IMG/VR virus record: IMGVR_UViG_3300043468_000422
DNA: 39,792 nt
From: a virus
Reading direction: 5' to 3' (one strand)
Under the pieces are notes generated by a model. It saw only the letters and a list, made by a program, of their open reading frames with translations. It was not told the DNA's origin and did no database searches. The position numbers and the translations under genes were made by a program. Numbering within the stretch: position 1 is the first letter of the stretch; the number at the start of each line of letters is the position of its first letter. Below are positions 7,914 through 38,661 of this stretch, in pieces.

Positions 7914-8435
7914 ATGCGAAACCTTGTACGGCTATTTGCCGTTTCTATGGTAGGGATTATCACCTTCGGCAGCATCGCTTCAGCAGCCAAAGCCCCTTTG
8001 CCAACCCTTGAACCTCTTAGCGTGGCTGTCCGTGCGTCTGAGAAGGCATCTGAACCTGACATCGTGTTCCGTCACGGCGACATCTCATGGCTACCAGAAC
8101 TAGCCACCGAAGCAGGCTGGCCACCTCACACATGGAAGAAATTGGGTCACATAATCCTACGCGAATCCGGCGGCTGCCCGACCCGTATCGGCGGCTCTGT
8201 AGTGGACAAAGATTGCAACCTGATTCGCATGGCAACCATGTCGCATCCATCAGATACAGGACTCCTACAGATCAATGGAATCAACTGGGATTTTGAGCGA
8301 ACCAAACTTGCAATTGTCTGTGTCCGTATGAAAGTATGCACCCAGGAGGAACTGATGAACCCGATAACAAACTTACGTGCTGGCAAACTACTGTTTGATG
8401 TGGCAGGCTGGAGTCCGTGGAATACGACGAAATGA
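7914..8435 (+). CDS. Secreted SLT/Rpf-like transglycosylase
   Basis: ATG 7914 follows ggaga. Signal peptide MRNLVRLFAVSMVGIITFGSIASA/AK. Motifs RESGG and DTGLLQINGINW. Confidence 0.75.
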   Translation: MRNLVRLFAVSMVGIITFGSIASAAKAPLPTLEPLSVAVRASEKASEPDIVFRHGDISWLPELATEAGWPPHTWKKLGHIILRESGGCPTRIGGSVVDKDCNLIRMATMSHPSDTGLLQINGINWDFERTKLAIVCVRMKVCTQEELMNPITNLRAGKLLFDVAGWSPWNTTK

Positions 8436-8719
8436 GCCTCCTGGACAACTTCATCCTTGAATTAAAAGACAACGACTTCGGTTGGCAAAAGGATGCAAAC
8501 TGTAAAGGTGCTGACACCGAAATGTTTTTTATGGAAATAGACGAAGCAGCTATCAACCATATAAAGATTCGTGAAGCAAGAAAAGTTTGTTTTGAATGCA
8601 CAGTAAAAAAGGATTGCCTTGACTTTGCTGTAGTGAACAATATAAATTATGGGATATGGGGTGGATCAACCCCACTGCAACGTAAGGAGATACGACATGA
8701 GCAACGAAACAGAGTTTGA
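8432..8719 (+). CDS. whiB: WhiB-family Fe-S transcription factor
   Basis: ATGA coupling. Four Cys in the pattern C-x(n)-C-x2-C-x5-C (CKG...CFECTVKKDC), the GIWGG turn and a basic C-terminus. Confidence 0.9.
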   Translation: MSLLDNFILELKDNDFGWQKDANCKGADTEMFFMEIDEAAINHIKIREARKVCFECTVKKDCLDFAVVNNINYGIWGGSTPLQRKEIRHEQRNRV

Positions 8720-9260: not shown

Positions 9261-9502
9261 AAGACCCACAATATGATCGCAAATATTTGGCAACAGAAAT
9301 TATCAAATCCTTTGGTCCAGATACGACAAACACCAATGTTGCAGAAATCTTAGGCATCGGTCGATCAACCGTATACAAATGGATTGAAAGACAAATACGA
9401 TTTAATGCTTACGAAGCAGATCGTTACGCAATTAAATTAGGTTTACATCCCTGCGAAATTTGGGATGATTGGTTCACTATGACATTGGAGGAAACAGGAT
9501 GA
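9257..9502 (+). CDS. Helix-turn-helix DNA-binding protein
   Basis: ATGA coupling. HTH NVAEILGIGRSTVYKWIERQ. Confidence 0.65.
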   Translation: MKDPQYDRKYLATEIIKSFGPDTTNTNVAEILGIGRSTVYKWIERQIRFNAYEADRYAIKLGLHPCEIWDDWFTMTLEETG

Positions 9503-10968
9503 AAGTTTTAAGTTTGTTTAGCGGTGTTGGTGGGTTTGACATGGGGTTAGAGAACGCTGGTATGCAGACAGTGTTCCAATGTGAATGGGACAAACATGCC
9601 AACAGCATTCTGTATAAGCATTGGCCTGATGTCCCGAAATGGGATGATGTATCTACACTGACAGGCAAGCATATTCTTGCTCATGCACCCGTTGTCGATG
9701 TTGTTGCATGGGGTTCACCATGCCAAGACCTGTCCGTTGCAGGCAAACGAGCAGGGTTAGAAGGTGGCAGGTCAAGTTTATTTCACGAAGGAATCCGAAT
9801 CATCAAAGAACTACAGGAGGAAACGAATGGACAATATCCAAGAATCTCTATTTGGGAGAACGTTGTTGGCGCACTCAACTCCAACAGAGGGGCTGACTTC
9901 GGGATCATCCTCAATGAAATGGCTGAAGCAGGGGCGTTGGCAATCGAATGGAGTGTGCTGGACGCACAATACTTCGGAATACCCCAACGACGAAGGCGCG
10001 TGTTCGTCATCGCTATCTTTGATCCTGTCCTCGCCAACCGATGTCCAAACCCGCTACTACCTGTCTCCGAAAGCTTGCCAGGGCATCTTGCGAAGGGCAA
10101 ACCGGCGAGGAAAAGTGCTGCCAGAAAGACTACAGAAAGCATTGGAACAGATGGTACAAAACTTGTAGAAGGGTTTACATCATCTTCATTTGCTGGTTAT
10201 TCCGAGGGTGTTGGCACACTTCGCTCCAACGGTGGTGACTTGGGAGGTGGCAGCGAAACATTAGTTACTGAACCGTTTGTGAAGTCAAGTCGAGCGCAAA
10301 CATCAGACGATTCAGAAACATGGATACTTGGCGAAGTCAACCCGACATTGAACTCGTTTGATGTTGGTGATACCCGTGCCACAACAGCCATCGTTGAACC
10401 AATACAAATGAAAAATAACCCTGTCAAAGAAATCGTTGGCTCACTACAAGCCAGGGTAACAGCAACCAATCACGAATCCATAAGAGATGGACATGCCATA
10501 GTTGAGGAACCCATCTTCTTTCAGGCACACATGAGTGGAGAAGCACGAATCCAAGAAAAAGTTATGCACTCGCTATCAGCGATGATGGGAACAGGAGGCA
10601 ACAACGTGCCAATGCTTGCCTACGATGAATACAACGACACCCTTAACGAGGTGCATCATGCTCTCCGTGCAGGCACCAAACAATCCACAGGTGTGTTGCT
10701 TGGCAATGAAGTCGCTGCCACCTTGCGGTCAGGTGGTGATGGTGGCGTACCATCAAGCCGAGGCGAACACCTAGTTGCTGAACCAACGATGGCTGTACGC
10801 CGGTTGACCCCTCTTGAATGCGAAAGGCTCATGGGTTGGCCTGATGATCACACTCGATACAAAGCCGACGGAACAGACCAAGCCGACACTCACCGATACA
10901 AACAATGCGGCAACGGAGTCGCATCACCAGTAGCCCAATGGATCGCAAAACATATTTTGGCAATCTAA
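9499..10968 (+). CDS. DNA (cytosine-5) methyltransferase with a long variable region
   Basis: RBS ggagga. Motif I LFSGVGGFDMG, IV GSPCQDLSVAG, VI ENV, VIII QRRRRVF, IX RRLTPLECERLMGWP, X GNGVASPVA. Confidence 0.95.
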   Translation: MKVLSLFSGVGGFDMGLENAGMQTVFQCEWDKHANSILYKHWPDVPKWDDVSTLTGKHILAHAPVVDVVAWGSPCQDLSVAGKRAGLEGGRSSLFHEGIRIIKELQEETNGQYPRISIWENVVGALNSNRGADFGIILNEMAEAGALAIEWSVLDAQYFGIPQRRRRVFVIAIFDPVLANRCPNPLLPVSESLPGHLAKGKPARKSAARKTTESIGTDGTKLVEGFTSSSFAGYSEGVGTLRSNGGDLGGGSETLVTEPFVKSSRAQTSDDSETWILGEVNPTLNSFDVGDTRATTAIVEPIQMKNNPVKEIVGSLQARVTATNHESIRDGHAIVEEPIFFQAHMSGEARIQEKVMHSLSAMMGTGGNNVPMLAYDEYNDTLNEVHHALRAGTKQSTGVLLGNEVAATLRSGGDGGVPSSRGEHLVAEPTMAVRRLTPLECERLMGWPDDHTRYKADGTDQADTHRYKQCGNGVASPVAQWIAKHILAI

Positions 10969-11087
10969 TGAACAAACAAACCTGGCACTGCCCACAATGC
11001 AAACAAGTGATCACCACCTACATTAAACTTGTTGAACCACCCGTATGCGAAAACAAACACCGACCAACACCAATGGAGAACAAATGA
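10968..11087 (+). CDS. 39-aa zinc-ribbon protein
   Basis: TAATG overlap with the methyltransferase stop. MNKQTWHCPQCKQ...PPVCENKH. Confidence 0.5.
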   Translation: MNKQTWHCPQCKQVITTYIKLVEPPVCENKHRPTPMENK

Positions 11088-11407
11088 ACCTGCTGGACAT
11101 CATCGCCGCTACCGAAGCCAAAAACCAGGCAATCGCTACCGTTACCAACAACGCCGACCAAACATGGCTCACCTCCTGTTACAACGTGATCGTACAAATC
11201 GCTACCACTACCGACACCTTCACTACCGACACAATTTGGCAGGCACTAGAAAACGCAGCACTACCGACACCACACGAACCCCGTGCGATAGGTGGCGTAC
11301 TTCGACAAGTTGCCAGTGACGGACTGATCTGCCCTACCGACACTTACCAACCATCGGCGCGTGTAGCGTGTCACGCTCGGCCTATTCGTGTTTGGCGGCG
11401 CGTATGA
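11084..11407 (+). CDS. Hypothetical protein
   Basis: ATGA coupling at 11084. The product starts MNLLDIIAATEAK and has non-repetitive composition. Confidence 0.6.
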   Translation: MNLLDIIAATEAKNQAIATVTNNADQTWLTSCYNVIVQIATTTDTFTTDTIWQALENAALPTPHEPRAIGGVLRQVASDGLICPTDTYQPSARVACHARPIRVWRRV

Positions 11408-11538
11408 ACGATCAACCGTCGCTGTTCGACATCACTGACCCGTACAAGGCCGGCGATAATCCGCTGGCCGACTGGACTGATGACCAGATCGAACACTTGG
11501 TATCGATATGGAAAAAAAATATCAAAAACAATCCTTGA
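11404..11538 (+). CDS. Possible 44-aa acidic peptide
   Basis: ATGA coupling at 11404. My translation is MNDQPSLFDITDPYKAGDNPLADWTDDQIEHLVSIWKKNIKNNP. Confidence 0.4.
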   Translation: MNDQPSLFDITDPYKAGDNPLADWTDDQIEHLVSIWKKNIKNNP

Positions 11539-11563
11539 CATTGTGCCGGCGATAGGTAATACT
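11535..11563 (+). promoter_or_regulatory. Promoter of accessory cassette, part 1
   Basis: TTGACA at 11535..11540, a 16-17-nt spacer, and TAATACT at 11557..11563. Confidence 0.5.
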
Positions 11564-11587
11564 CTTGTTAGCCCCGCTTGACGGGGG

Positions 11588-11604
11588 AACAGTTGGGAGA
11601 CTGT
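11588..11604 (+). promoter_or_regulatory. Conserved palindromic leader AACAGTTGGGAGACTGT (copy 1)
   Basis: Identical 17-mer to 13660..13676. ACAGT/ACTGT arms flank the SD-like TGGGAG. It abuts ATG 11605. Confidence 0.5.
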
Positions 11605-12216
11605 ATGAAACAAGTAACGGTTACAGAAACCGTGTTTTTATTGGGCGAATTGTCTGATACGGCACGTGAAAAAGCGTTAGAAAAAATGCGTAACGTATTG
11701 TATGAATGGTTAGGCAGCAGCCAGATCACCGATCATCTGAACGGCGAGCTGTATTCCGCGCTCACTGGCACATACGACGGGGATCTAAGCAAAAAAGAAT
11801 TGTCTAAGCGCGTTGGCCTAACTATCGAATGGTCACTGTCACACTGTCAAGGTGACGGGGTAGCTATCTATGGCACACTCTATAAAGATGACGCGCCCAA
11901 CGTAGAATGGCACGGAGCAGACACCGCCACGTTCACCCGCAATAGTCACGGCCACCATTACAGCCACGAAAACTGTATGACTATCGCATTGTTCACTAGT
12001 GACGATGACGGTTGTTCGATTGACGCAGACACAGACACAACCGAAACGTTTGCCGAACAATTCCGTAATCTATGTCGCGAACTAGCACGATCAGGTTACG
12101 CGGAGATTGACAACCTAACCAGTGAACAAGCCGTATTAGAATATCTCGAATGGTCTGAGCCGCGTCGGTTCACCGAAGACGGAGATATTCACCCGACAAA
12201 ATGGTGGGGGGAATAA
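11605..12216 (+). CDS. Hypothetical 203-aa protein (SLSHCQGDG motif)
   Basis: ATG immediately follows the conserved leader. I recognise no family. Confidence 0.7.
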   Translation: MKQVTVTETVFLLGELSDTAREKALEKMRNVLYEWLGSSQITDHLNGELYSALTGTYDGDLSKKELSKRVGLTIEWSLSHCQGDGVAIYGTLYKDDAPNVEWHGADTATFTRNSHGHHYSHENCMTIALFTSDDDGCSIDADTDTTETFAEQFRNLCRELARSGYAEIDNLTSEQAVLEYLEWSEPRRFTEDGDIHPTKWWGE

Positions 12217-12374
12217 TGGCCACCACTACAGCACCGGCTTGGAATTATTACCGGTCACAATTAGCCGGTACGCCTTGCGCGGAATGCGCTATTTGCGGAA
12301 TGATCTACGTCTATTGGGAAACCGAAGACTTGGAATATCACACTCAACAACACGAAACGGAGACAGCACAATGA
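12216..12374 (+). CDS. 52-aa Cys-rich protein (CAECAIC)
   Basis: TAATG and ATGA overlaps at its two ends. It is below the ORF-track cutoff. Confidence 0.5.
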   Translation: MATTTAPAWNYYRSQLAGTPCAECAICGMIYVYWETEDLEYHTQQHETETAQ

Positions 12375-12604
12375 AAGTGAAATATGCGATACAACAACTA
12401 TCAGCACTAAAACCCGATGAAGAAATTGTTATCGCCTACTGGACTAAAGAATGGTTCATAGACGTACTTGGCAGGGAAATAAACGATGACCAATGGGATG
12501 ACATCACCGGAGAATGTGACGATGTGATCGACAATATGCCTATCGGGGATTACCTAGAAACCGCAGCCAACGAAATACTTGACAACGAGGAGACAGCACA
12601 ATGA
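12371..12604 (+). CDS. 77-aa strongly acidic protein
   Basis: GGAGACAGCACAATGAA initiation region, identical to the one at 12587. About 20 D/E against about 5 K/R by my count. Confidence 0.65.
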   Translation: MKVKYAIQQLSALKPDEEIVIAYWTKEWFIDVLGREINDDQWDDITGECDDVIDNMPIGDYLETAANEILDNEETAQ

Positions 12605-12900
12605 ACTTACGCGCATTACAACAATTCACCGACGAAATATTTGGGCAAAACCGGCATACCGACAGTATGAACGACTACTACCCGCACACACTGTACCTAG
12701 ATACCGAACAAGGCACGTATGGTGACGCGTCACGAATAGCATTGATCAGTACAACTGACTGGACACAAGATGATTGTGACGCTTGGGAGTGTATGACCGA
12801 CAGCGAGCGCAACGAATACGCGAGAGAACACAACCGTTACAACGGCCAATGCCTAAACCCATTGGAATACCAACGCGAGACTGGCAGCGACAACCAATGA
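12601..12900 (+). CDS. 99-aa acidic protein
   Basis: ATGA coupling. About 19 D/E against about 7 R. Confidence 0.65.
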   Translation: MNLRALQQFTDEIFGQNRHTDSMNDYYPHTLYLDTEQGTYGDASRIALISTTDWTQDDCDAWECMTDSERNEYAREHNRYNGQCLNPLEYQRETGSDNQ

Positions 12901-13079
12901 AGCCGCTACTGCACCGCGTTGTGGCGGTATCCAACCTATGCACAGTCACAACTTTTGTAACCGCGCACGATGACGATGAAGCCGAACTTATGGGATTGCA
13001 GCAGATAGCAGATGAGTTTGGATTTACTGATACGTCTATGTTTTTTGACATTGAGACAGAATGTGAAGAAGCACAATGA
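12897..13079 (+). CDS. 60-aa acidic protein
   Basis: ATGA coupling. About 13 D/E against 2 K/R. Confidence 0.55.
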   Translation: MKPLLHRVVAVSNLCTVTTFVTAHDDDEAELMGLQQIADEFGFTDTSMFFDIETECEEAQ

Positions 13080-13246
13080 CCGACAGCCTCATATTCCGCG
13101 CTACCGCCACCACCATAATCGTGACCGTAGGTATATGTGCCGTGACAGTAGGCGCCAACGCCGGCTATCTATGGTGGGCAACAATGCTCATCTCGATCTA
13201 CCCGTTCACCCACCTTTACTACCGACACAAACAAACTCGCCGCTAA
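13076..13246 (+). CDS. 56-aa two-TM membrane protein
   Basis: ATGA coupling. My translation is MTDSLIFRATATTIIVTVGICAVTVGANAGYLWWATMLISIYPFTHLYYRHKQTRR. Confidence 0.5.
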   Translation: MTDSLIFRATATTIIVTVGICAVTVGANAGYLWWATMLISIYPFTHLYYRHKQTRR

Positions 13247-13253
13247 CAAGTAC

Positions 13254-13292
13254 CGGTAGTGGGGTCACACTCCCAAGCTGGCACCACTACCG
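13254..13292 (+). terminator. 9-bp hairpin (candidate I-shaped terminator) between the two halves of the cassette
   Basis: cggtagtgg at 13254..13262 pairs with ccactaccg at 13284..13292. It starts 8 nt after the stop at 13246 and has no U-tract. Confidence 0.4.
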
Positions 13293-13414
13293 CTACCGGC
13301 ACCACAACCGACTACACCGCGACAGCACACGTAAGTTACCGATCAGTAATCGAACTAGTGTTCGTATAGCGTAAAGTCTTTACATTGTCAAACCCAAAGA
13401 CGCTCATATTAGGT

Positions 13415-13615
13415 ATGAAATACCTAATACAAATAGACACCGCCGCCGGCCAACTCACTATCGGCCACTTCGACACACTCACCGCCGCGCGCAGATATCT
13501 TTCCAAAGTTAGATCCGGCGTAATTGTGCCACTGATCCCCGCACACGCGGCAACAGCTCAACAGCTCACAACTTCCACCCGCGATCAAATATATTTAATG
13601 CTTGACAAAATCTAA
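13415..13615 (+). CDS. Hypothetical 66-aa protein
   Basis: ATG 13415 inside ORF 13385..13615. TCATAT lies 5 nt upstream, so the mRNA may be leaderless. Confidence 0.5.
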   Translation: MKYLIQIDTAAGQLTIGHFDTLTAARRYLSKVRSGVIVPLIPAHAATAQQLTTSTRDQIYLMLDKI

Positions 13616-13630
13616 AAAGTATGATCTAAT
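13602..13630 (+). promoter_or_regulatory. Promoter of accessory cassette, part 2
   Basis: TTGACA at 13602..13607, a 17-nt spacer, and TCTAAT at 13625..13630. Confidence 0.45.
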
Positions 13631-13659
13631 CATAAAGCGCACGAAAACAACGAGCGCGC

Positions 13660-13676
13660 AACAGTTGGGAGACTGT
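13660..13676 (+). promoter_or_regulatory. Conserved palindromic leader AACAGTTGGGAGACTGT (copy 2)
   Basis: Identical 17-mer to 11588..11604, lying 6 nt upstream of ATG 13683. Confidence 0.5.
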
Positions 13677-13682
13677 CAAACA

Positions 13683-14294
13683 ATGAGCGCATACCAAGTA
13701 GACACCGATCTAATTGACCTGATCGTATCGGCCACCACCGAGCGCGATTACAACCGCGACCACGTAAACCCGCTATATATGTATCTACCGGCAGTTACGC
13801 CCACGATATACACAGCCGAACTAATCGAGCTGACCGAACACCGCGAAGGGTACAGCGTGATCACACTGCCCAACGGCCAACCCCTAGCGCACTTGGGAAA
13901 CCGCGCAGACCGCGAGACGCTGATAGGTCGTGAACTAATAGCGGCGAATTGTGCGAGCCTTGCGGCACGATACAGCGACACCAACGCCGACAAAATCGGC
14001 GGGATGATCTCATATTTGCCAACTGATTACACGTACCGCCGCGTATGCCGCGACAGGTTCGCCGACTTCGGGCACGTGTTTGGCGCGTTGGCTTGCTTCG
14101 AGTATCAGTCGTGCGAAACCGGCCAGAGAACGCTTGCCGAAATGATCACCGAACGAACCCGCAAAAGTATCGCCGCCGGCGTAGCCGCCGAAACAGACGA
14201 AGCCCGCGCCGCGTGGGGTAGCTGGTCACGTGAATATCAACAAACCCGCCACCAAGAAACCCGCGCACAAATAGCCGAAATGATGAACCAATGA
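13683..14294 (+). CDS. Hypothetical 203-aa protein (FEYQSCE motif)
   Basis: ATG 13683 follows the conserved leader. I recognise no family. Confidence 0.7.
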   Translation: MSAYQVDTDLIDLIVSATTERDYNRDHVNPLYMYLPAVTPTIYTAELIELTEHREGYSVITLPNGQPLAHLGNRADRETLIGRELIAANCASLAARYSDTNADKIGGMISYLPTDYTYRRVCRDRFADFGHVFGALACFEYQSCETGQRTLAEMITERTRKSIAAGVAAETDEARAAWGSWSREYQQTRHQETRAQIAEMMNQ

Positions 14295-14497
14295 CCGAAC
14301 TACAAGCAATCCCACTGACCGCGCTCGTTATGGCATCACCGTTTATCGCTGGCGCCATAATTGGCCAACTAATGAGCCACCGCAAACCCCGCACACGAAC
14401 ACCAAACGCCGAACTAATCCAACGCCGGCGCGCACAAATCGAGCGCAACAGCGCACGAAAAACAACAACCCAACAGAACAGGAACAAAACCAAATGA
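14291..14497 (+). CDS. 68-aa single-TM protein with an Arg/Lys-rich tail
   Basis: ATGA coupling. Hydrophobic IPLTALVMASPFIAGAIIGQLM followed by a basic C-terminus. Confidence 0.55.
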   Translation: MTELQAIPLTALVMASPFIAGAIIGQLMSHRKPRTRTPNAELIQRRRAQIERNSARKTTTQQNRNKTK

Positions 14498-15111
14498 GCA
14501 ACGATCAGAAAACCCAACTAGGCCAAATCACCGGCACATTAAAAGACCTTGCGCAAGTGTTCGCAATCGTCACACCGTACGCCAGCACCGACAAGCAATC
14601 TCTACAACTGGCCACGATCACCGGCGCAGTGTTCGAGTGTTGCGACAGTTACGCCGCAGTAAAACACACCACAGACCAACTAACCACAGCAGCCACCCCG
14701 CAACCGTTCACACTGCCCGCCAGCGAAGTATCAAAAGCACTCACAGCAGCAGCCAAACTAGCCGGAAAACACGCCGGCCAAGTCACAGCCACATTGACCG
14801 CCACGCCGGAAGCGTGGACACTCACCACCACAGCAGGCCACACCCACACCGGAAACAACCCACAACACGAAACACCCAACACCAGCCAGATCTGGCACGA
14901 CGCACAAACCACAACGCCGGACACGTTCGAGCCGTTCAGCCTTGCCCAATGGCAGCTCGAAAGACTAGCCAAAACCACCAAACAGGCCGCCAACAACGAC
15001 CAACCCGCAACACTCACCAACTACAGCACACCCACCAAACCAGTCATCTACACAATCACAACACCCACCAGCAGCACTCTAGTGCTAGTAATGCCAACCA
15101 AAACCAAATAG
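14494..15111 (+). CDS. Hypothetical 205-aa Thr-rich protein (possible sliding-clamp-like fold)
   Basis: ATGA coupling. The suggested fold rests on pattern resemblance only (see findings). Confidence 0.65.
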   Translation: MSNDQKTQLGQITGTLKDLAQVFAIVTPYASTDKQSLQLATITGAVFECCDSYAAVKHTTDQLTTAATPQPFTLPASEVSKALTAAAKLAGKHAGQVTATLTATPEAWTLTTTAGHTHTGNNPQHETPNTSQIWHDAQTTTPDTFEPFSLAQWQLERLAKTTKQAANNDQPATLTNYSTPTKPVIYTITTPTSSTLVLVMPTKTK

Positions 15112-15185
15112 GAGACACCCACAACAGAACCACCACCACCCAGAGCGGCTAGATGTCGCTCGCCTTGCCGACAAAATCGGCCACC

Positions 15186-15218
15186 AATGCCCGCCCGCAC
15201 CCACCGCCGGCGGGCATT
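15186..15218 (+). terminator. 10-bp GC hairpin (candidate I-shaped terminator) after the accessory cassette
   Basis: aatgcccgcc at 15186..15195 pairs with ggcgggcatt at 15209..15218, with a 13-nt loop and no U-tract. Confidence 0.4.
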
Positions 15219-16002
15219 GTGCTATCCCGCCACAAGTCAAACGCCGGACAGCAACACAGCTGCACACCAACACCAGCCACCAGCTAGGCGATCGCCGCAA
15301 ATGCTTACTACTTGCCGACCCTATCCCCTATTGCCAAGCCGTATCGGGGTACCCCCACCCATTCAGCCGGCCAAACCAACCGGCAACACCAACGCCGGCA
15401 GAGATCGACAGCTCACACCAATCACCCAGCACCTAGATCACTAACTGGGGTAGTGCCTTGGCCACCGCCCCCTCTATATATCTATTATCTGTTGTGTCGA
15501 TATTTGGTTTTGTGAACGCTGTGAGTGGTCGGCTCTTTGGGTTGTGGTGGGTTGACTACTGTGTGTGGTTTCGGGTTTGTATCGTGTTGGGAGATATATA
15601 CATAAATGTGTATCTCCTGGGGTGATGGCGGCCAAAGAGTGATGGTGTTTGCTCCCCCCACGGTTCGCTCTTGGGAGCAGGTCGCCGTAGCTAAGTTCTT
15701 TTAGCCGACACCTTTATTTAATGATTTGACGTTCATCACGCTGCTTGATCTATCAATTAGATCATCGAACCACGTTTCCGTGGATGAATGTCCCGCCCTG
15801 TGCAACGAGGGTACGACCGTGATACTTGCCGGTTGTTTTGTTTGATGATACATCATGGTTTGTCTCACGCTGTCTCATGTGCAGATATTCTTCTGATATA
15901 TCAAAGAGTCAATGTTGGTGGGCGAGGGGAGAACCGGAGTTAGTAACCCGACGAAACTATCTCAACGGACACACCCACCAACAGGTGTATGATAGCACCA
16001 CA

Positions 16003-17979
16003 ATGACTGCTGGACGTTCAGGGCGACGACAAATACCGCCACAAGATGTTGCACGTTTTTGGCAGGCACGGGCATCAGGTATGTCGATCAAAGATGCAGC
16101 GAAAATCGCTGGTGTGCATATCAACACCGCACAAAAGTGGGACTCTAAGAAGCGTAAAGTTAAAGCAGAGTTAGAGTTAGCGAACCTGGATGGGGCTAAA
16201 GTACGCAAAAAAGAAGGTGGTGTACAAGCTGACGCATGGCAAAAAGTTATGGATGTGTCCGATCTGCCACCGGTTATTCCGTATGACCGTCTAAAACCTG
16301 AAGCGCAACGGGCGTTAACCGATTTCGATTATTTCCGTAGACGCTATTTGGGTCGTGTGCCTTCACCGTGGCAGGTTGATGCCGCATATCAGATTGAAGC
16401 ATGGCTTTACAACGACGATAAAGAGTTTGTGGTGTTGAACTGTCCCCCAGGTGCAGGCAAATCCACTTTGTTCCATGATGTGGCTGTGTGGCAGATTGTC
16501 AAGAACCGCAAGATTCGTGTAATGATCGGTTCCGTGTCACAAGCTTTGGCAAAGATGTATTCGCGCCGTATTCGTGAAACCCTGGAACGCCAGTTCCCTC
16601 TAGACCCTGACCCGATCCTGATAGACAAAGGGTTAGCTATCAAAGCCGAAGCATGTCTTGCCATAGACTTTGGTAGGTTTAAGCCTTCAACAAGTGGTAG
16701 TCTGTGGCGAGCCGAAGAATTTATTGTCGAACAGGAGGACATGGGTGGACTGGACAACAAAGAACCTACTGTTAGTGCTTACGGTATCGAGTCTGAGTTC
16801 ATTGGCCACCGTGCGGATCTCTGCTTATTTGACGACGTTGCGAGTCCGGAAAATGCTAAAGAAAGTGCGGCACGAGATAAACTTATTGAACGATGGGACT
16901 CCATGGCAGAAGCTCGCGTCGACCCAGGCGGCCTTCTCGCAGTTGTCGGACAAAGACTCGGACCTCTTGACCTCTACGCCCACTGCCTCTCCAAAATCAC
17001 GTACGAAGATTTCGAAGACAACTACGACGGGTCAGACACCACGGACATCTCCGAAGACAAAGAACCCCTCAAAAAGCACAAGTACCACCACCTCATCTAC
17101 AAAGCGTATTACGAAGAACTAGACACAGGTAAACTTTCTAAACGTAACAGTTCACCAGCATGGCCTGAAGGCCCACTGCTAGACCCGTACCGTCTGTCTT
17201 GGAAAGACCTATCGTATGTGAAGCACTCTAACCCTGCAAAGTTTGCTGTGGTATATCAACAAGAAGATCAAGCTGAAGGCAACTACCTCATTGAACGGGT
17301 GTGGGCTACCGGTGGTGTGGGTGCTGACGGTGTGATGTATCCAGGGTGTATTGACAATGACCGTCGCCCAGGACATATTCCACAAAACTTGCAGCCACCA
17401 CTTATTTCGATTGCTTCGGTTGACCCGTCACCAACAATGTTTTGGGCTATCCAATGGTGGATCTACCAACCTGAAACCAACCTACGGTTCCTGATTGATT
17501 GTGAGCGCGTAAAACTTACCGCTGAAGGATTGTTGGGATATGACATTTCTGGGCGCACATATTCAGGGATCATGGAAGATTGGCAGAACCGTTCATTTGA
17601 GTACGGCTACCCAATCTCCCACTGGATTGTGGAAGTAAACGCAGCTCAACGATTCTTGTTGGCACACGACTTTGTTCGCAAATGGCAGGCATTACACACC
17701 GTGAACGTGATACCTCACACCACTAGCCGCAACAAACTAGACGAAAACTTGGGTGTGGAAGCGTTGCTACCTAACTTGTGGCGTTCCGGTCAGGTGCGTT
17801 TGCCTACTATGCGCGAGAACTGGAAGACTTTGGCGTTCATTGAGGAGATGTCTTCGTGGACTAGAGACAAAAAAGCGGGTACCGACCTTGTGATGGCACA
17901 CTGGTTTGCTGAATTACATGCACCGAAACTTCGACAGGGTGTTGCCCCACCGAAACAGTGGCGACCTTCTTGGATTTAG
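16003..17979 (+). CDS. terL: Terminase large subunit with an N-terminal HTH extension
   Basis: Walker A NCPPGAGKST, Walker B-like ADLCLFDDV and a long C-terminal nuclease-size region. HTH MSIKDAAKIAGVHINTAQKW. The start is uncertain because the ORF is open from 15826; ATG 16003 was chosen. Confidence 0.85.
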   Translation: MTAGRSGRRQIPPQDVARFWQARASGMSIKDAAKIAGVHINTAQKWDSKKRKVKAELELANLDGAKVRKKEGGVQADAWQKVMDVSDLPPVIPYDRLKPEAQRALTDFDYFRRRYLGRVPSPWQVDAAYQIEAWLYNDDKEFVVLNCPPGAGKSTLFHDVAVWQIVKNRKIRVMIGSVSQALAKMYSRRIRETLERQFPLDPDPILIDKGLAIKAEACLAIDFGRFKPSTSGSLWRAEEFIVEQEDMGGLDNKEPTVSAYGIESEFIGHRADLCLFDDVASPENAKESAARDKLIERWDSMAEARVDPGGLLAVVGQRLGPLDLYAHCLSKITYEDFEDNYDGSDTTDISEDKEPLKKHKYHHLIYKAYYEELDTGKLSKRNSSPAWPEGPLLDPYRLSWKDLSYVKHSNPAKFAVVYQQEDQAEGNYLIERVWATGGVGADGVMYPGCIDNDRRPGHIPQNLQPPLISIASVDPSPTMFWAIQWWIYQPETNLRFLIDCERVKLTAEGLLGYDISGRTYSGIMEDWQNRSFEYGYPISHWIVEVNAAQRFLLAHDFVRKWQALHTVNVIPHTTSRNKLDENLGVEALLPNLWRSGQVRLPTMRENWKTLAFIEEMSSWTRDKKAGTDLVMAHWFAELHAPKLRQGVAPPKQWRPSWI

Positions 17980-20137: not shown

Positions 20138-20502
20138 TGGCTGCATACGCTCAACGAACCGATCTAAACTCATCTGCGATGACACCAGAATACGGTGGTA
20201 TCAAAAAGTTGGCTGACGCACAAAAAGCTGTACCAATGGGTGCATCACCAGCAGCCGCACCACAAATCCAACGCCCTGTGCCTGGAGCAGCAGGACCGTT
20301 GACACGCCCAACAGAACGACCACTAGAACCGATTACCGCTGGCGCAAACTTTGGTCCAGGACCTAACGCTATGGCCGCAGGTATTCCTATTCCGCGTTCA
20401 TCCAATGTTGTTGCTATTGAAGAACTACGCGCTATTGCACAAATGTATGCTTCGGATGACCTGCTCGACTTGTTGGATGCGTATGGAAATGATGTTCAGT
20501 GA
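20137..20502 (+). CDS. Hypothetical virion-module protein
   Basis: TAATG coupling to the portal gene. Pro/Ala-rich centre. Confidence 0.6.
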   Translation: MAAYAQRTDLNSSAMTPEYGGIKKLADAQKAVPMGASPAAAPQIQRPVPGAAGPLTRPTERPLEPITAGANFGPGPNAMAAGIPIPRSSNVVAIEELRAIAQMYASDDLLDLLDAYGNDVQ

Positions 20503-23500
20503 AACTCGGACAACAGATTCCAGCAATAAATGTTGTTAACGAAATAAACAAGCCTGCTGCCGCACCCGCACCTGCGGCGATGACACCACAGCAACTACAA
20601 AAACTTACTGAAATCAAAACCCGTGCCGGATGGCTGTCGCCAAGTGAAGTACTGTCCCTAGCCAAAGGTGATGCCACCACACAGGCTGTTGATGCTGTTG
20701 CCACAATGAAAGCAAAACAGATTGTTGACGATCAAGGCTCTGATGAACCTGGTGGTAACTGGATTGAACGCAACGTATACGACAAACTTAAAGCGACAAC
20801 ACGATACACGTTTGCAGGATTGAACTTTGTCCCAGAATTTGTGCAAGGTGGTGCGGCACAGTTTTTTGATGACAACACAGACGTTGACGGTTTCATGATT
20901 TCCACAACACTTGGTTCGTTGTTGGCAAACCCCGAACTTCAAGGCGAAGGATTTTTTGCTGGCGACAAGCTAATGGAAAAGCAGGCTGAACGCGCACGAC
21001 GTTACCGTGGAACAGTAAACGGTTCCGCTTGGACCGTGGGCCGTGGTGCAGCAAACCTGGTGTTCAAACCTAAGTCGTTGCCATACAACGTGATGTCCGG
21101 TGTGTTGGATGCGTTGGTAATGATTAAAGCCGACCCTACAGGGCCGATTGTCAAAGGTGTCAAGTTGGCTACTGCTGGCGGTTTAACTGTTGGCGGCGCA
21201 AAAGTGCTTGGCACAAGCAAAGTGCCACGACTATCCGTGGCAGCATTGAAAGCACTTCGAGAAGAACTTGCTTCAGGTATTGGCTTAACTAAAGGTCTAG
21301 CCGAATATGGTTTAGACGGAACAGCATACGATACGTTCTCTCGCACTAACCGCCGTTTCGTGACATTGATTGATCGTCTTGTGGGAGAAAAAAGTGCTTC
21401 GCGAATAGCAGAAGACATCTTTGACCACAAACTACCCAACGAAGTCGTAAACGCTTTGGCTGACGCAAACGATCCCGAAGTGGTGCGAGCCATTCTTGCT
21501 ACAGGATGGGGTATTTCGGATCAAGCATTACCACAAGATATTCGTAATATCCAAAAAACGTTGTTGGGTTCACGCACCGTTCTTGGTACCGCTATTGGTG
21601 ATATTGCTCACGAACGCATGCCAATGATCGATGGTATCCGCAAGTCACGATACTTCACTGCTATGGCAAAAGGTTTAGTTGTAGTCAACGGTGACACTAA
21701 CGACAACCGTAAAGCAGTAAAAACAATTATTTCATATTTGCGTACAGCCGGAGTTGCCCCAGAAACCGTTGACGAGATTGCGAACATGGCGATGCGTTCG
21801 TTTGTTCCGTCTGGTTCTGATGCCGCTCGTAAGTCAACAATGGAAGTTTTCGAGGGAACACTGAAAGCCGTAATGAAGCAAGACGGCGTGACTGATGAAG
21901 TAATAAATGAACTGTTTACTAGGTCGCGAAGCGGCATAGAAAAAGCCCGCATCTATTTGCAGAACAGGGCTGGACAGGCAACAGACAACGGATACCACAC
22001 ATGGTTGATGAATAAAGACCGTGGTTTTATTCCAGAAGAACAACTTGAATTGATGTTGTCCGAGTTAGGTTATCGAAATGGCGACCAAATGGCGTTTACT
22101 TCGCCAACTGAACTGGTAGAAATGTTGGACCGAGTTCAGGTGTTGCCAGATTTGCGTGATGTTCGACGTATCACAAGAAACAAACTGTTCCGTGACGTAT
22201 TGGGCGAACAAGATATTGTCGGGAAGATACCGTTGGCAGCAAAACGCGGGAAAAGACTTGTTACTACTATTACGGATCAAGCAGAATTTGATCGTTTGGG
22301 CAGAGAACTGACTCAGTTGCGTAAAGCACCAAACAAAACAGAAGACATGTTTAACAAGATAGAAGAATTGCTATTTCAGCAAAACTCGCTAAAAGTTAAA
22401 GAACTAAAAAAGGTTATTACACCAGAGCAACGTGGTGCCATAAACGCGATTGACTATGTGCAGAACCAGTTGTGGAAACCGTTGGCTTTGGCAACAGGTG
22501 GGTATGTTGTGCGTAACTCGCTTGACGCGCAGGTTCGTATGGCGTTTAGTGAATTGCCAAGTTTGATTACGCACCCGCTGCAATATATTGGTCTTGTTAC
22601 CGGCACATCAAAAAAGATGAGTCTCAAATTTGAAAACCTTGCCGCGCTTGGCACAACAGCAAGTCAAGAAACCATAAGCAAACTTGGCACCCAGATTGAC
22701 GAGCTAAGGGCAATCACAAATCGAACAGCAAAACAAGAAGCAAAACTGGCCAAACTTGTTGGCAAACAAGATGAAATGATGCTGACCAATGAAGGTTTGT
22801 TGGATGAAGGTTTGCAAGATTTGGCTCAACAGTTAGGTTTTGGTTTGGATAAACAAGGTCTTGGTGCGATGGACTTTGACGACACTATGACCAAAACAGG
22901 TCATTTCGAAAACGTGTCCAGAGGTGACGCTGGTGGTGTTGCCCGTCACACTGACGCTGTAGCACAAAACGGGTACAGAACATTCAATGATCCTTTCCGT
23001 CGTTTGGCAGCACAAACCTTTGTCGAATTTGGTGGGGTGTCACAAACATCACGCGATGCCGCAGCAAGCCGAATTGTCAACTTGATCAGAAGCAACCCAA
23101 AACTTAAAGAAGACGTTTATGCGATGCACCTTAAAGGTTTTCAAGTAACAAATGCTAGAACAGGATTGCGTAGTAGCACTGGCGCAATAGATTTGGCTGC
23201 CCTACCAGAAGATGAGATGGTTCAGGCTTTGTGGCAATACGCCCAAAGAATTTCTGTTGAAAACGCACAAACATTTACAGGCAACGTATATGAAGTTCAA
23301 TTTATGTATTCGTTTAACCGCGTACCAAAAACCATTGGAAAGAAAATTGTTCCGGCGTTTGAAACAGAAGCGGGAACTTTGGTTGATACCGAAGGTGGGA
23401 TGCTGCGTGTCGGGTCAATTGTGGAAATTTCTGACAACGAAGTTGGTGTTGTAACTAGTTTCAAAGATTCTATTTCAAGAGAAATGCTCATTGATCCGTA

Positions 23501-25532
23501 CACGGGCGGTGTGGTTGAAGCAACAGGATACGGTGATGATGCCATCGCTATAGTCCAACCGGTAGAAAATGGTGACGCTTTTGGTAACGGCGAAGGCACA
23601 CAGGCGGCGCGTCGGATAATTGGTAGCACACCAGTTTATGATGAAACCACCAAAAGGGGATTGCCTCAAACGCTAAAGCGCGAAGTATCCCAATTCGATC
23701 CAAAGGATTCAGGTAAAATCCAATCTTTTCAAAACACGATGGATACCAGTACCGAATGGTTTTTCAGCCATATTTACGGTACGGTCACACGCAAACTTGA
23801 ACGATCACCAGTGTTTCGTGAATACTATTACAAAGAAGTGAACGCGCTAATTGATCGTCTTGATCCTGCGGAAGCACAAAAGTTTTTGTTGAAAGTAGAA
23901 AAATCAGCCAAAGACGCTGGCATGACCCCAGAAAAATATGTTGGAGACAAAGAGATTATTGCTCGTATGAGAGCATCAAGTAAAACTGCTGGCGATGTGA
24001 CCATCAACGAATTAGATGAGTTTGCCAAAGTCCAAGCAGTCACCAAGATGAAAGAACTTTTGTACGATGCCTCAGAGCGAAGCAATCTACAAGACGCGCT
24101 GCGCATCATCATGCCGTTTGCTCCAGCGTGGAAAGAAGTTATCGGCACATACGCAGGGTTCCTAAAATCAGACCCGATTGGTGCAGCAAGAAACTTCCAA
24201 AGGGTTTACAGTGGTGTTGGCAACGCCGACCCAGACAACGATGGTCGAGGGTTCTTCTACAAAGACCCAACCACGGGTCAGACCATGTTTACGTTCCCAG
24301 GATCAGGGACTTTGGCTAAAGCATTGACGGGTTTGGATGCCACCCTTGAAGCACCTGTGGCGCGTTTGTCGCAAGGTATTCAGTCGTTCCCTGCGCTCGG
24401 TCCAATGGCGCAAATTGCGGCCTCTAAGCTCATCCCTGATGTTCCTGAAACAGATTTTGTTGTTGGACTGTTGTTGCCGTACGGTCGCAAAGGTATCGGG
24501 GCCGTAGCACCACTTCCACCGTATGCAACAAAACTGTATGCGGCATTTGCAGCAAATGAGGATGATTTGACAGGCATCTATGCCAACACATACATCGAAA
24601 CCTTGAGAGCGTTGTCTGCTACTGGCGACTATGACATGTCTAGCAAAGACGAAATTTTGCAACTACAAAAAGACGCAAAGTTTAAGGCACGAATTTTGAC
24701 TGGCTTCCGAGCAATCTCGCAGTTTGCTGGTCCAACAGCAGGAACCACAGAGTTCAAAATTGGAACAGAATCCGGCGACCAATTCGTGTCTGCGTTGATC
24801 AAAGAATTTTATGATATGCAAGCCGATCCTGCTATTGGATACGACAAAGCACTGCCACAGTTTTTGGCTAAATACGGCGACGAAGTGGCGTTGTATGTTG
24901 CGTCAAAAAGCCGATCCACCGTTGAAGGTTTGGAAGCAACGTCAGAGTTCCGTGAATGGGAATCAAAGAACAAAGACATTATTGCTGTGTATCCAGAGGT
25001 GGCAAGGTATTTGGCTCCTACGGGTTCAGAGTTTAACTTTGCTGTTTATGATCGTCAGCTTCGTGCAGGCGAACGAGTCAAATTAACAGATAACCAAATC
25101 ATCGAGTTGGCTCAAATCCGTATTGGTTCAGCCAATTTCCGTCATGCTCGCGAAATGGTTGGGCCATATCCTGACGCTAACGCCAAAGACATGTTGAAAC
25201 AGTATCGGACATACCTGTCTAAGAAGTATCCTGGGTTCCCTGCCGTGGCAGAGTTTCAGGTTGGTAAGTATTACAACGACATTATTGATTTGAAGCAGCT
25301 GGTGTTTGATAAGCGTGTTCAGCCTGATGGTACTGTTGATTCTATTAAACAGTATCTATCGGCACGTGAGCAGGCGATTGCTGCTTCGGGTGTTTCTGAG
25401 CAAGGTTTCCGTTCTGCGAAGTCTGCGGAAGGGTTGCGGGATCAGTTGGCTAGTATTGGTTTGGCATTATCTCAGCGTGAGCCTAATTTTGCCCGTATTT
25501 ATGATCGTCTATTAGCATCGGAAGTTGAGTAG
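20499..25532 (+). CDS. Giant 1677-aa virion-associated protein (candidate internal/ejection protein)
   Basis: GTGA coupling. One uninterrupted 5-kb ORF with non-repetitive composition. I recognise no enzymatic motif. Confidence 0.85.
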   Translation: MKLGQQIPAINVVNEINKPAAAPAPAAMTPQQLQKLTEIKTRAGWLSPSEVLSLAKGDATTQAVDAVATMKAKQIVDDQGSDEPGGNWIERNVYDKLKATTRYTFAGLNFVPEFVQGGAAQFFDDNTDVDGFMISTTLGSLLANPELQGEGFFAGDKLMEKQAERARRYRGTVNGSAWTVGRGAANLVFKPKSLPYNVMSGVLDALVMIKADPTGPIVKGVKLATAGGLTVGGAKVLGTSKVPRLSVAALKALREELASGIGLTKGLAEYGLDGTAYDTFSRTNRRFVTLIDRLVGEKSASRIAEDIFDHKLPNEVVNALADANDPEVVRAILATGWGISDQALPQDIRNIQKTLLGSRTVLGTAIGDIAHERMPMIDGIRKSRYFTAMAKGLVVVNGDTNDNRKAVKTIISYLRTAGVAPETVDEIANMAMRSFVPSGSDAARKSTMEVFEGTLKAVMKQDGVTDEVINELFTRSRSGIEKARIYLQNRAGQATDNGYHTWLMNKDRGFIPEEQLELMLSELGYRNGDQMAFTSPTELVEMLDRVQVLPDLRDVRRITRNKLFRDVLGEQDIVGKIPLAAKRGKRLVTTITDQAEFDRLGRELTQLRKAPNKTEDMFNKIEELLFQQNSLKVKELKKVITPEQRGAINAIDYVQNQLWKPLALATGGYVVRNSLDAQVRMAFSELPSLITHPLQYIGLVTGTSKKMSLKFENLAALGTTASQETISKLGTQIDELRAITNRTAKQEAKLAKLVGKQDEMMLTNEGLLDEGLQDLAQQLGFGLDKQGLGAMDFDDTMTKTGHFENVSRGDAGGVARHTDAVAQNGYRTFNDPFRRLAAQTFVEFGGVSQTSRDAAASRIVNLIRSNPKLKEDVYAMHLKGFQVTNARTGLRSSTGAIDLAALPEDEMVQALWQYAQRISVENAQTFTGNVYEVQFMYSFNRVPKTIGKKIVPAFETEAGTLVDTEGGMLRVGSIVEISDNEVGVVTSFKDSISREMLIDPYTGGVVEATGYGDDAIAIVQPVENGDAFGNGEGTQAARRIIGSTPVYDETTKRGLPQTLKREVSQFDPKDSGKIQSFQNTMDTSTEWFFSHIYGTVTRKLERSPVFREYYYKEVNALIDRLDPAEAQKFLLKVEKSAKDAGMTPEKYVGDKEIIARMRASSKTAGDVTINELDEFAKVQAVTKMKELLYDASERSNLQDALRIIMPFAPAWKEVIGTYAGFLKSDPIGAARNFQRVYSGVGNADPDNDGRGFFYKDPTTGQTMFTFPGSGTLAKALTGLDATLEAPVARLSQGIQSFPALGPMAQIAASKLIPDVPETDFVVGLLLPYGRKGIGAVAPLPPYATKLYAAFAANEDDLTGIYANTYIETLRALSATGDYDMSSKDEILQLQKDAKFKARILTGFRAISQFAGPTAGTTEFKIGTESGDQFVSALIKEFYDMQADPAIGYDKALPQFLAKYGDEVALYVASKSRSTVEGLEATSEFREWESKNKDIIAVYPEVARYLAPTGSEFNFAVYDRQLRAGERVKLTDNQIIELAQIRIGSANFRHAREMVGPYPDANAKDMLKQYRTYLSKKYPGFPAVAEFQVGKYYNDIIDLKQLVFDKRVQPDGTVDSIKQYLSAREQAIAASGVSEQGFRSAKSAEGLRDQLASIGLALSQREPNFARIYDRLLASEVE

Positions 25533-31147: not shown

Positions 31148-32029
31148 GTGGCTATAACTGCTGTTGCGGGGTTTACAGAACCGTTTAGGAACACTCATCC
31201 GTTTTATCGGTACGGGTATGTTAATGCCATACGCACGGCTACTGGTAGTGGTGTTGGTACTCAAATTGCTAGCGGTGCGAAAGCTGTTGTTGTTACGGCT
31301 ACAGCGTCAGGGTTGGGTACTGCGTCGTCTGTCGCACAGGTGCTACGCGCAAGGTCTGCTACGGGTAGTGGTATTGGTGATGCTGCTGCGGTAGCAATAT
31401 CTTTACGGATTCGTACTGCTACGGGTTCTGGTGTTGGAACTATGGATTCCACAGGGTTGCATATCGCGCCTCGTACAGCTTCAGGTAGCGGTATTGGCTC
31501 CGATACTACTGTCGGCAAGACAACCCCTGTTAGAACGGCTCAGGGAAGCGGTACAGGGGATTCTGTAGTCACGTTCATTCGTATCCCTATCCGTGTTGCT
31601 ACAGGTTCAGGTGTTGGTTCGGGTGACGGTGTTGATCTTGTTATCAACATTCGTACAGCCACAGGTTCAGGCGAAGGAACTTCGGTCAGTCTTGGTGGTG
31701 TCGCATACTTCCGTTCAGCCACAGGTTCCGGCACAGGAACCGATACCGCTGACTGGGTGAAGTCACGCATCTTCCGTGTCCCATACACCTACCAGTATGT
31801 TGGCGGATTCTTCAACGATTTTGATGGGGCAAACCGTTTGGGGTCTTACATTAAAAGTAATGTTCGAGCAAGAAACCTTTACAAGTTGACCGATAACAGT
31901 TACACCATTGTTGACCAACGTGATCTAGGTCAAGTAAAGAAAGTTTGGTATGGTGGGCGTGACCACTTCTTGACAGCAGCAGAAGTAGAAGAACTCACAG
32001 CAGACGGATTCGGAGCAAGTATTACCTGA
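31148..32029 (+). CDS. Structural protein with nine ~20-aa R-(T/S)-A-T-G-S-G-x-G repeats
   Basis: GTG start. The repeats are read directly from the translation. Confidence 0.75.
   Translation: MAITAVAGFTEPFRNTHPFYRYGYVNAIRTATGSGVGTQIASGAKAVVVTATASGLGTASSVAQVLRARSATGSGIGDAAAVAISLRIRTATGSGVGTMDSTGLHIAPRTASGSGIGSDTTVGKTTPVRTAQGSGTGDSVVTFIRIPIRVATGSGVGSGDGVDLVINIRTATGSGEGTSVSLGGVAYFRSATGSGTGTDTADWVKSRIFRVPYTYQYVGGFFNDFDGANRLGSYIKSNVRARNLYKLTDNSYTIVDQRDLGQVKKVWYGGRDHFLTAAEVEELTADGFGASIT
31232..31774 (+). repeat. Nine tandem ~60-nt (20-aa) coding repeats
   Basis: RTATGSGVGT..., TATASGLGT..., RSATGSGIGD..., RTATGSGVGT..., RTASGSGIGS..., RTAQGSGTGD..., RVATGSGVGS..., RTATGSGEGT..., RSATGSGTGT... 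Confidence 0.8.
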
Positions 32030-38416: not shown

Positions 38417-38661
38417 CCGATTACATCGCAGTATTAACACACCGTTACGCAGGCAAAGAATGGTCTATTAGCGAAAACGATTACGCAACTCTTGTTTGGC
38501 ACAGTGAAGGAACAAAGCCAAGCAAGGCAACTCTTGATGGTTTGTGGGCGTCAGTTCAACAAGAGATTGCTGACGAAGCAACCGCCAAACTTGCAGCCAA
38601 GCAAGCCGTACTGGACCGTTTAGGCATCACAGCCGACGAAGCAAGGATGTTGCTGTCATGA
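38413..38661 (+). CDS. Small fibre-associated protein, paralog 1
   Basis: ATGA coupling. Paralog of 405..653. Confidence 0.75.
   Translation: MTDYIAVLTHRYAGKEWSISENDYATLVWHSEGTKPSKATLDGLWASVQQEIADEATAKLAAKQAVLDRLGITADEARMLLS

Follow-up and report, generated by a model that had tools for sequence, protein, structure and literature searches.

Proteins that disarm bacterial immunity are usually found by position, beside something that is already known, and several loci of this type have been described. In phages T7 and T3, gene 0.3 is the first gene behind strong host-polymerase promoters, and it encodes either Ocr, a DNA mimic, or an S-adenosylmethionine (SAM) hydrolase, two non-homologous proteins that both defeat type I restriction. 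In the acr-aca loci of Pseudomonas Mu-like phages a conserved promoter precedes variable small cargo at a fixed position, conserved genes lie downstream, and inhibitors have been found there by position. ArdA, which mimics DNA, inhibits restriction enzymes of type I. The leading regions of conjugative plasmids carry anti-defence islands, of which ArdA and orphan DNA methyltransferases are hallmark genes (Samuel et al. 2024, PMC11541004). Here we describe a block of eleven + strand open reading frames (ORFs), g1 to g11, at 11404-15111 of the IMG/VR virus record IMGVR_UViG_3300043468_000422. The 39,792 bases of that record, referred to below as the window, comprise a whole phage genome of approximately 39.7 kb whose first and last 127 bases are identical. 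The block appears to be a mosaic accessory region with an anti-restriction slot behind the second of two promoters (P2), where g9 would be an alternative counter-defence protein; the probability of this reading is put at about one half.

The slot was defined by comparison with relatives. Megablast found no close GenBank phage relatives of the block. The same genome and many relatives are present in metagenome assemblies (their contigs are numbered with the prefix L below), and the group consists of uncultured actinobacterial phages, apparently from freshwater. By blastn, the segment 13241-13324, which holds a closing hairpin, and the segment of approximately 13601-13686, which holds P2 and its leader, are common to all close relatives. 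Similarity stops at 13686, at the start codon of the cargo gene, and returns at 14289-14291, where g10 starts. Between these borders the first genes belong to at least 12 unrelated families in about 25 distinct contigs. An earlier note on this DNA had suggested a variable island, and indeed g4, g6, g8 and g9 come and go while the flanks remain 95-100% identical in close relatives.

ArdA (PF07275) is the sole recognisable cargo of the slot and also the commonest, being present in eight relatives' contigs as two diverged lineages. Against a Pfam cut-off of 27 bits, the ArdA proteins of L001, L003, L032 and L034 score 71.2, 73.6, 46.6 and 44.8, respectively. The first type comprises L001 and L003, with an identical N-terminus in L040, and the second comprises L032 and L034, with which L035 and L058 align. 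These proteins are approximately 195 residues long with a net charge of -21 to -26, and the top match of their profile among PDB sequences, a weak one (E 0.37), is the ArdA structure 2w82. No slot cargo other than ArdA matched a Pfam or PHROG family. The region thus has a fixed position, conserved flanks, unrelated alternatives and one established anti-defence family, which are the marks of a hot spot. The resemblance to a counter-defence island that had been noted earlier has in this way gained positional evidence, through the ArdA genes behind P2; it does not extend to a demonstrated function for any protein of the window.

In the window the slot is occupied by g9 (13683..14294, + strand), a protein of 203 residues. 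Its family consists of 57 clusters, all from metagenomes, with strongly conserved motifs, and a ratio of non-synonymous to synonymous polymorphism (pN/pS) of 0.15 indicates purifying selection. The structural model of g9 is confident (predicted local distance difference test score, pLDDT, 86.7) and had no Foldseek match in the PDB at E ≤ 0.001, the best hit having E 2.8; 2w82 was absent among the matches listed. In GenBank phages, g9 found marginal matches only, in phages from spring-water metagenomes. Because the slot behind P2 carries either ArdA or unrelated alternatives in the relatives, g9 is proposed to be a counter-defence protein. Several possible kinships were rejected. The profile of g9 aligned with the relatives' ArdA at an hhalign probability of <1%, which excludes g9 as a recognisable diverged ArdA, and an ArdA profile matched no window protein at E ≤ 1. 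A relationship between g9 and other slot cargo of 135-204 residues was rejected by hhalign. Finally, g2 and g9, which are equal in length and follow the same leader, are not paralogues (BLASTP E 0.30).

Each of the two operons in the block is headed by a promoter and a structured leader. As had been noted, TTGACA occurs at 11535 and at 13602, in each case with a 17-nt spacer and a hexamer like the -10 element. P1 (11535..11563, + strand) has AATACT at this second position (CATACT in relatives), and P2 (13602..13630, + strand) has TCTAAT following TGA, in the manner of an extended -10 element. Both promoters, and the leader hairpins behind both, are present in all relatives, even those with as little as 53-57% identity in g11. 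The spacers of both promoters vary, and P1 of distant relatives keeps its two hexamers with a changed spacer sequence. The same 17-nt leader element, AACAGTTGGGAGACTGT, occurs exactly twice in the window, where 0.11 occurrences are expected, and two copies were found in none of 100 shuffled sequences. In the predicted fold this element is a hairpin with a 6-bp stem, ACAGUU/GACUGU, and a GGGA loop, which places the Shine-Dalgarno (SD) sequence GGGAG at the tip. The SD hairpin of the P1 leader (11589..11604, + strand) ends directly before the ATG of g2, and that of the P2 leader (13661..13676, + strand) is identical to it. In both leaders a GC hairpin lies on the 5' side: CCCCG/CGGGG at 11572..11586 (+ strand), predicted by folding and conserved in all relatives, and GCGCACG/CGAGCGC at 13637..13657 (+ strand), replaced at the same place in distant relatives by a GGCC/GGCC hairpin.

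The SD hairpin is supported by covariation. Its stem occurs in the compensatory variants ACAG/CUGU, ACAC/GUGU, ACCG/CGG, CAGC/GCU, ACGC/GCGU and GCAC/GUGC. Over 24 distinct leaders, a set from which no candidate site had failed the stem filter, 92% of the cells are paired and four of the six base pairs show changes in both partners. Covariation scores 0.487, compared with 0.140 for shuffled alignments (0/500 reach 0.487) and with no more than 0.076 for slid partners; a smaller set of leaders gave the same outcome. Moreover, P1 and P2 of one genome can differ in the sequence of the SD stem, and an RNA structure therefore fits better than a protein operator. Within IMG/VR the leader motifs were found only in contigs of this phage group.

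Taken together, these observations suggest how the block may work. The host RNA polymerase most likely transcribes the two operons, presumably early in infection, with P1 and P2 as promoters of the sigma-70 type. Transcription would begin a few bases downstream of the -10 element, and each RNA would carry first the short GC hairpin and then the SD hairpin, directly before the first start codon. Promoter and leader may in this way form a portable expression unit in which the ribosome-binding site stays accessible whatever gene comes next. The DNA between the start codon of the slot and g10 would be a recombination hot spot, which in relatives holds ArdA or one of at least 11 unrelated proteins. 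In this genome g9 would be an alternative means of counter-defence, probably directed against restriction, and would be expressed from a strong promoter that the host recognises. As candidates for counter-defence, g2, which lies behind P1 and has a net charge of -20, and the small, variable and acidic g4-g6 would be weaker, and g3, g7, g10 and g11 would be conserved backbone genes. We infer every protein function in the block, and that of g9 from its position only. A bolder version, offered tentatively and rather doubtful at present, is that the promoter-leader units are plug-in cassettes in which the SD hairpin insulates translation, and that g2, g9 and at least 10 other orphan cargo families are new anti-restriction or anti-defence proteins with folds that are so far absent from solved structures.

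The protein behind P1, g2 (11605..12216, + strand), is 203 residues long and belongs to a large uncharacterised family. Its only family match is to phrog_5162 (E 7.9e-18), which has no function assigned, and its profile aligns with the IncC-plasmid protein 'NgrC' (the 283-residue pKPHS3 protein) at an hhalign probability of 99% (E 3.6e-18). The core motifs QGDGVA..YG and TRNSHGHHYSH are invariant in the family alignment and are placed by the structural model (pLDDT 83.6) on adjacent loops of a β-sheet. By Foldseek the model had no PDB match at E ≤ 0.001, 2w82 again being absent among the matches listed, and in BFVD it matched uncharacterised phage proteins only. The 1271 clusters (50% identity) that a profile search gathered include 246 with E below 1e-10, and ten remote members scanned for a fused domain that might hint at function contained no Pfam domain. 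Homologues lie on 760 plasmids, 743 of them conjugative and most with IncC-type backbones, where the gene is sometimes labelled 'NgrC'; a literature search on that name found nothing relevant. Others are found in large Bacillus phages and in genomes of Pasteurellaceae, Brevibacillus, Planctomycetes and others. One Planctomycetaceae metagenome-assembled genome holds at least six copies on separate contigs (L076, L078-L080, L084 and L085). The identity of g2 as an ArdA was rejected, the hhalign probability of its profile against the relatives' ArdA being <1%.

On the IncC plasmids pS468M_P1 (L019) and pKPHS3 (L022) hypothetical genes form a block around the g2 homologue ('NgrC', 283 residues), and a gene for a Toprim/zinc-ribbon primase follows approximately 1 kb on its 3' side. 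In pS468M_P1 the block comes after genes for a DNA cytosine methyltransferase, a PAPS-reductase-like protein and a 5'-deoxynucleotidase.

Several points weigh against the anti-restriction interpretation. To share a slot with ArdA is guilt by position, and accessory hot spots can hold many functions. No protein of the window matches a known anti-defence family or a solved structure, and g9 is mildly acidic, with a net charge of -8 against -21 to -26 for ArdA. When ArdA or a C5 methyltransferase was sought near g2 homologues, an ArdA-like ORF was present in one of 25 bacterial or plasmid loci, and there is therefore no real association of g2 with ArdA. Matches to the promoter consensus are not enriched in the region (10 found against 9.3 expected from shuffled sequence), so the calling of P1 and P2 draws on their conservation and not on the consensus. 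Lastly, g1, g2, g3, g5, g7, g10 and g11 are conserved in nearly all relatives, which fits core functions better than arms-race cargo.

The alternative that survives best is that the block is a generic mosaic of accessory genes, 'moron'-like or concerned with host takeover, whose mixed and unrelated functions might include superinfection exclusion, host shut-off or metabolism. ArdA would then be a mere passenger, and neither g9 nor g2 would be connected with defence. The sheer number of unrelated cargo families, with ArdA alone recognisable among them, is what such a region would yield, as is the lack of likeness between any window protein and known anti-defence proteins; small membrane proteins such as g7 and g10 are moreover typical of exclusion or of lysis timing. 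Yet ArdA is the most frequent cargo and is there as two diverged lineages, a variable C5 methyltransferase gene lies in the neighbourhood, and a fixed slot that follows a strong conserved promoter and is filled by non-homologous alternatives is the pattern of gene 0.3 of T7 and T3 and of anti-CRISPR loci. A purely generic region is therefore regarded as possible but somewhat improbable.

The methyltransferase gene in question (9469-10968; PF00145, E 9e-56) encodes a C5 cytosine DNA methyltransferase, apparently without a partner nuclease. It adjoins the block and is variable, among close relatives being present only in L001, L002 and L007, which fits an accessory gene for self-protection.

The conservation of the backbone bears on a further alternative, that g2, g3, g7, g10 and g11 have core functions in replication, regulation or DNA handling and are too diverged to be recognised. 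These five genes are present in nearly all relatives under purifying selection, and no polymerase, primase, helicase or initiator is among the genes recognised in the non-structural arm. The global minimum of the cumulative GC skew falls right after g11, and on an IncC plasmid the homologue of g2 lies approximately 1 kb upstream of a primase gene, two small genes intervening. However, P1 is followed by g2 in nearly all relatives but not in every one: L025 has a different protein of 138 residues there and L032 is without g2, so g2 is dispensable. Neither g2 nor g9 matches a solved replication protein. One candidate for a core function was g11 (14494..15111, + strand), a conserved protein of 205 residues encoded by the most A+C-rich stretch of the genome. 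A C-terminal 'LVLVMP' and the pattern of its N-terminus had hinted at a β sliding clamp, but this identity failed every sequence test. The profile of g11 found no clamp among PDB sequences, Pfam scans of 25 family members gave no clamp domain, and hhalign against Escherichia coli DnaN returned a probability of 0.5%; in GenBank phages g11 had no tblastn match at all. Unrecognised core functions are accordingly judged unlikely as an account of these genes.

The base composition of the block was examined against a genome-wide A+C fraction of 0.522, with a standard deviation of 0.063 among 600-nt windows. The earlier note had taken the whole cassette to be A+C-skewed. Only the part from 13.1 to 15.46 kb is an outlier; 11404-13254, at 0.558 (z 0.6), does not stand out within the non-structural arm. 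The fraction is 0.661 at 13683-15111 and 0.718 in g11, the nine 600-nt windows with the highest A+C in the genome have their starts within 14101-14901, and at 14821-14880 the A+C count is indeed 53/60. Codon endings differ as had been described, with a third-position A+C of 0.80-0.82 in g10-g11 against 0.15-0.65 in the late genes. The skew runs on through non-coding DNA, in the form of a C-rich, G-poor tail (15112..15460, + strand; A+C 0.668), to approximately 15460, where the sequence flips abruptly to G+T-rich DNA with an A+C fraction of 0.415; this flip coincides with the global minimum of the cumulative GC skew. By its resemblance to such elements, the tail could be a Rho loading site, and the skew minimum could mark an origin of replication. 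The tail forms part of an 888-nt non-coding spacer (15112-15999) before the terminase gene, which could also be a packaging region.

The same peak and the same flip, approximately 900 nt past the start of g11, are found in every relative, including those in which g11 is only 53-57% identical. Composition was consequently rejected as a sign of horizontal transfer: the skew lies on g10-g11 and non-coding DNA, not on the variable genes, and because that DNA is conserved in all relatives the skew is an old positional feature of the lineage and not a trace of recent acquisition. A single horizontally acquired, A+C-skewed island that forms one undescribed multi-gene takeover or anti-defence system, as first proposed, is thus very improbable, for all its tight ORF coupling, twin promoters and genuine extreme of composition at 14.1-15.5 kb. 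The peak of the skew lies on conserved genes and non-coding DNA and recurs at an unchanged position in every relative, and the composition of the first sub-operon is ordinary. Nor do the genes vary as a unit: the backbone of g1, g2, g3, g5, g7, g10 and g11 is interleaved with independently swapping cargo. What had been observed in the earlier note is therefore confirmed in part, and its interpretation is in part supported.

The gene run itself is as it had been drawn. The eleven ORFs are coupled by 1- or 4-base overlaps, start/stop overlaps being present at 11404, 12216, 12371, 12601, 12897, 13076, 14291 and 14494, and independent public annotation of identical contigs shows all of these ORFs with the exception of g7. 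Against up to 11 relatives, pN/pS is 0.15-0.47 for g1-g5 and g7-g11. It is 1.1-1.3 for the overlapping alternative frames 13012-13374 and 14637-15152 and 0.84 for an ORF in the downstream spacer, 15187-15444, which is probably not coding. No gene of the window block could be placed in a Pfam, PHROG or NCBIfam family of known function, in agreement with the first impression, and Pfam and NCBIfam gave no family above threshold for any of g1-g11. The short motifs and compositional traits that had been listed are all present, namely SLSHCQGDG, FEYQSCE, the CxxCxxC protein, the small acidic proteins (isoelectric points, pI, of 4.05-4.3) and the 21% Thr of g11.

In the P1 operon, g1 (11404..11538, + strand) encodes an acidic protein of 44 residues, a length also given by public annotation, with a pN/pS of 0.32 over 11 relatives; its ATG overlaps the stop codon of the upstream gene 11045-11407. 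The CxxCxxC protein g3 (12216..12374, + strand; 52 residues) resembles a C2H2 zinc finger, with a sub-threshold match to PF13878 (E 3e-5), and is present in all relatives at 85-94% identity (pN/pS 0.30). Three acidic proteins follow. Of these, g4 (12371..12604, + strand; 77 residues, pI 4.05) is variable, being present in four of the eight distinct relative contigs compared, g5 (12601..12900, + strand) has 99 residues and a pI of 4.27, and g6 (12897..13079, + strand; 60 residues) is a candidate ORF, since it is found only in the window genome and near-identical contigs and has no counterpart in relatives. The last gene, g7 (13076..13246, + strand), encodes a small membrane protein of 56 residues that occurs in all relatives at 77-91% identity (pN/pS 0.47). 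Two small membrane proteins had been predicted in the block, one with two transmembrane segments and one with a single segment; segments are present in g7 and in g10, but of the two in g7 the first (residues 4-32) is clearly hydrophobic and the second is weaker. In g10 (14291..14497, + strand; 68 residues), which is the conserved right border of the slot, the single transmembrane segment is followed by a basic tail.

The division into two sub-operons holds for the promoters and leaders, with one amendment: g8 (13415..13615, + strand), a basic protein of 66 residues encoded between the first closing hairpin and P2, lies upstream of the second promoter and so is not part of the second sub-operon. 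The 3' end of g8 holds the -35 element of P2, and its DNA segment is found in only four relatives (L001, L005, L008 and L025). The GC hairpins that were said to separate and close the sub-operons exist and are conserved in relatives. The hairpin that closes the P1 operon (13250..13296, + strand; -22.2 kcal/mol, z -2.5) is present in all close relatives, and that of the P2 operon (15185..15219, + strand; -27.2 kcal/mol, z -4.1) is a conserved inverted repeat with 14-nt arms and one compensatory change in L001. Neither has a T-run, and neither was called as an intrinsic terminator by a terminator scan. Actinobacterial terminators often lack a T-run, and termination at these hairpins is thus plausible. 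No known RNA family and no tRNA was found in the window.

The block is the last part of the non-structural arm, with the terminase gene close behind it; nearly all genes of this genome are on the + strand. Recognised genes of this arm encode a VanY-type peptidase, a nuclease, a metallophosphoesterase, a RecE-like exonuclease, a single-strand annealing protein, a RusA-like resolvase, a WhiB-type regulator and the C5 cytosine methyltransferase. The WhiB gene (8417-8719) indicates an actinobacterial host. Terminase, portal and structural genes follow from approximately 15.8 kb on. The large-terminase ORF (15826-17979), which encodes 664 residues in relatives, carries an N-terminal extension of approximately 90-200 residues before the terminase homology; this looks like a helix-turn-helix (HTH) and may be a fused part resembling a small terminase. 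A second variable spot lies just 5' of the terminase gene (window 15822-15911; L003 12284-12719; L006 8348-8833), where L003 and L006 have extra ORFs of up to 272 residues without a Pfam match, which are missing from the window.

Further features lie elsewhere in the genome. The exact 127-nt direct repeat at 1-127 and 39666-39792, together with the fact that position 1 falls within a tail-fibre-like gene (phrog_6942), identifies the record as a circularly assembled contig; the repeat is most likely an overlap left by the assembler, the genome being circular or circularly permuted, and not a true terminal repeat. Near the tail-fibre region, 381-635, 38009-38643 and 39418-39477 are diverged duplicates (63-76% identity) of gene 3' ends, which suggests paralogous fibre or chaperone cassettes. 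Repeats of 22-26 nt, spaced at multiples of 60 nt, at 31236-31621 inside a gene for 293 residues (31148-32029) indicate a 20-residue periodic protein repeat rich in Gly, Ser and Thr. A protein of 1677 residues encoded directly after the portal region (20499-25532) matched none of the PHROG families.

Anti-defence hot spots are already known, as are orphan methyltransferases and the presence of ArdA in mobile elements (PMC11541004). What is new here is this particular hot spot in uncultured actinobacterial phages, with its exact borders and a covarying leader that is common to two slots, and a set of orphan families, for two of which confident models were predicted that appear unlike any solved structure. 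Because ArdA marks the slot, approximately 12 orphan families, g9 among them, become candidates for the inhibition of bacterial immunity, few enough to be tested, in a host group about which hardly anything is known. The family of g2 is noteworthy in its own right, with more than 1200 clusters of strongly acidic proteins that have neither a Pfam model nor a similar solved structure and are carried by hundreds of clinically important IncC conjugative plasmids. In addition, a leader that is supported by covariation and appears to present its ribosome-binding site may be a simple means of making translation independent of context.

Compared with the ArdA family itself (PF07275; Tn916 Orf18, PDB 2w82), the locus contains true members in the P2 slot of relatives, and g2 is similar to them in size and in its strong negative charge; however, sequence, profile and fold all place g9 and g2 outside the family. 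The anti-defence islands of plasmids (PMC11541004) likewise cluster ArdA, orphan methyltransferases and small uncharacterised genes, and 743 conjugative plasmids carry a member of the g2 family. Those islands differ in using single-strand (Frpo) promoters and in being set relative to oriT, whereas the promoters here belong to a phage and are of the double-strand, sigma-70 type. With the acr-aca loci the P2 slot shares a conserved promoter, a fixed position, variable cargo and conserved downstream genes, g10-g11. In contrast to those loci, g10 is a membrane protein, no Aca-like HTH repressor was recognised downstream of the slot (g10 and g11 gave no HTH or other family match), and the sole known cargo is anti-restriction rather than anti-CRISPR. 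Unlike gene 0.3 of T7 and T3, the slot has at least 12 alternatives and not two, it lies beside the terminase gene and not at a known leading end of the genome, its early timing is presumed, and a covarying, structured leader belongs to the unit. The likeness to gene 0.3 is in the arrangement: a DNA mimic, here ArdA, alternates with unrelated proteins behind one promoter, P2.

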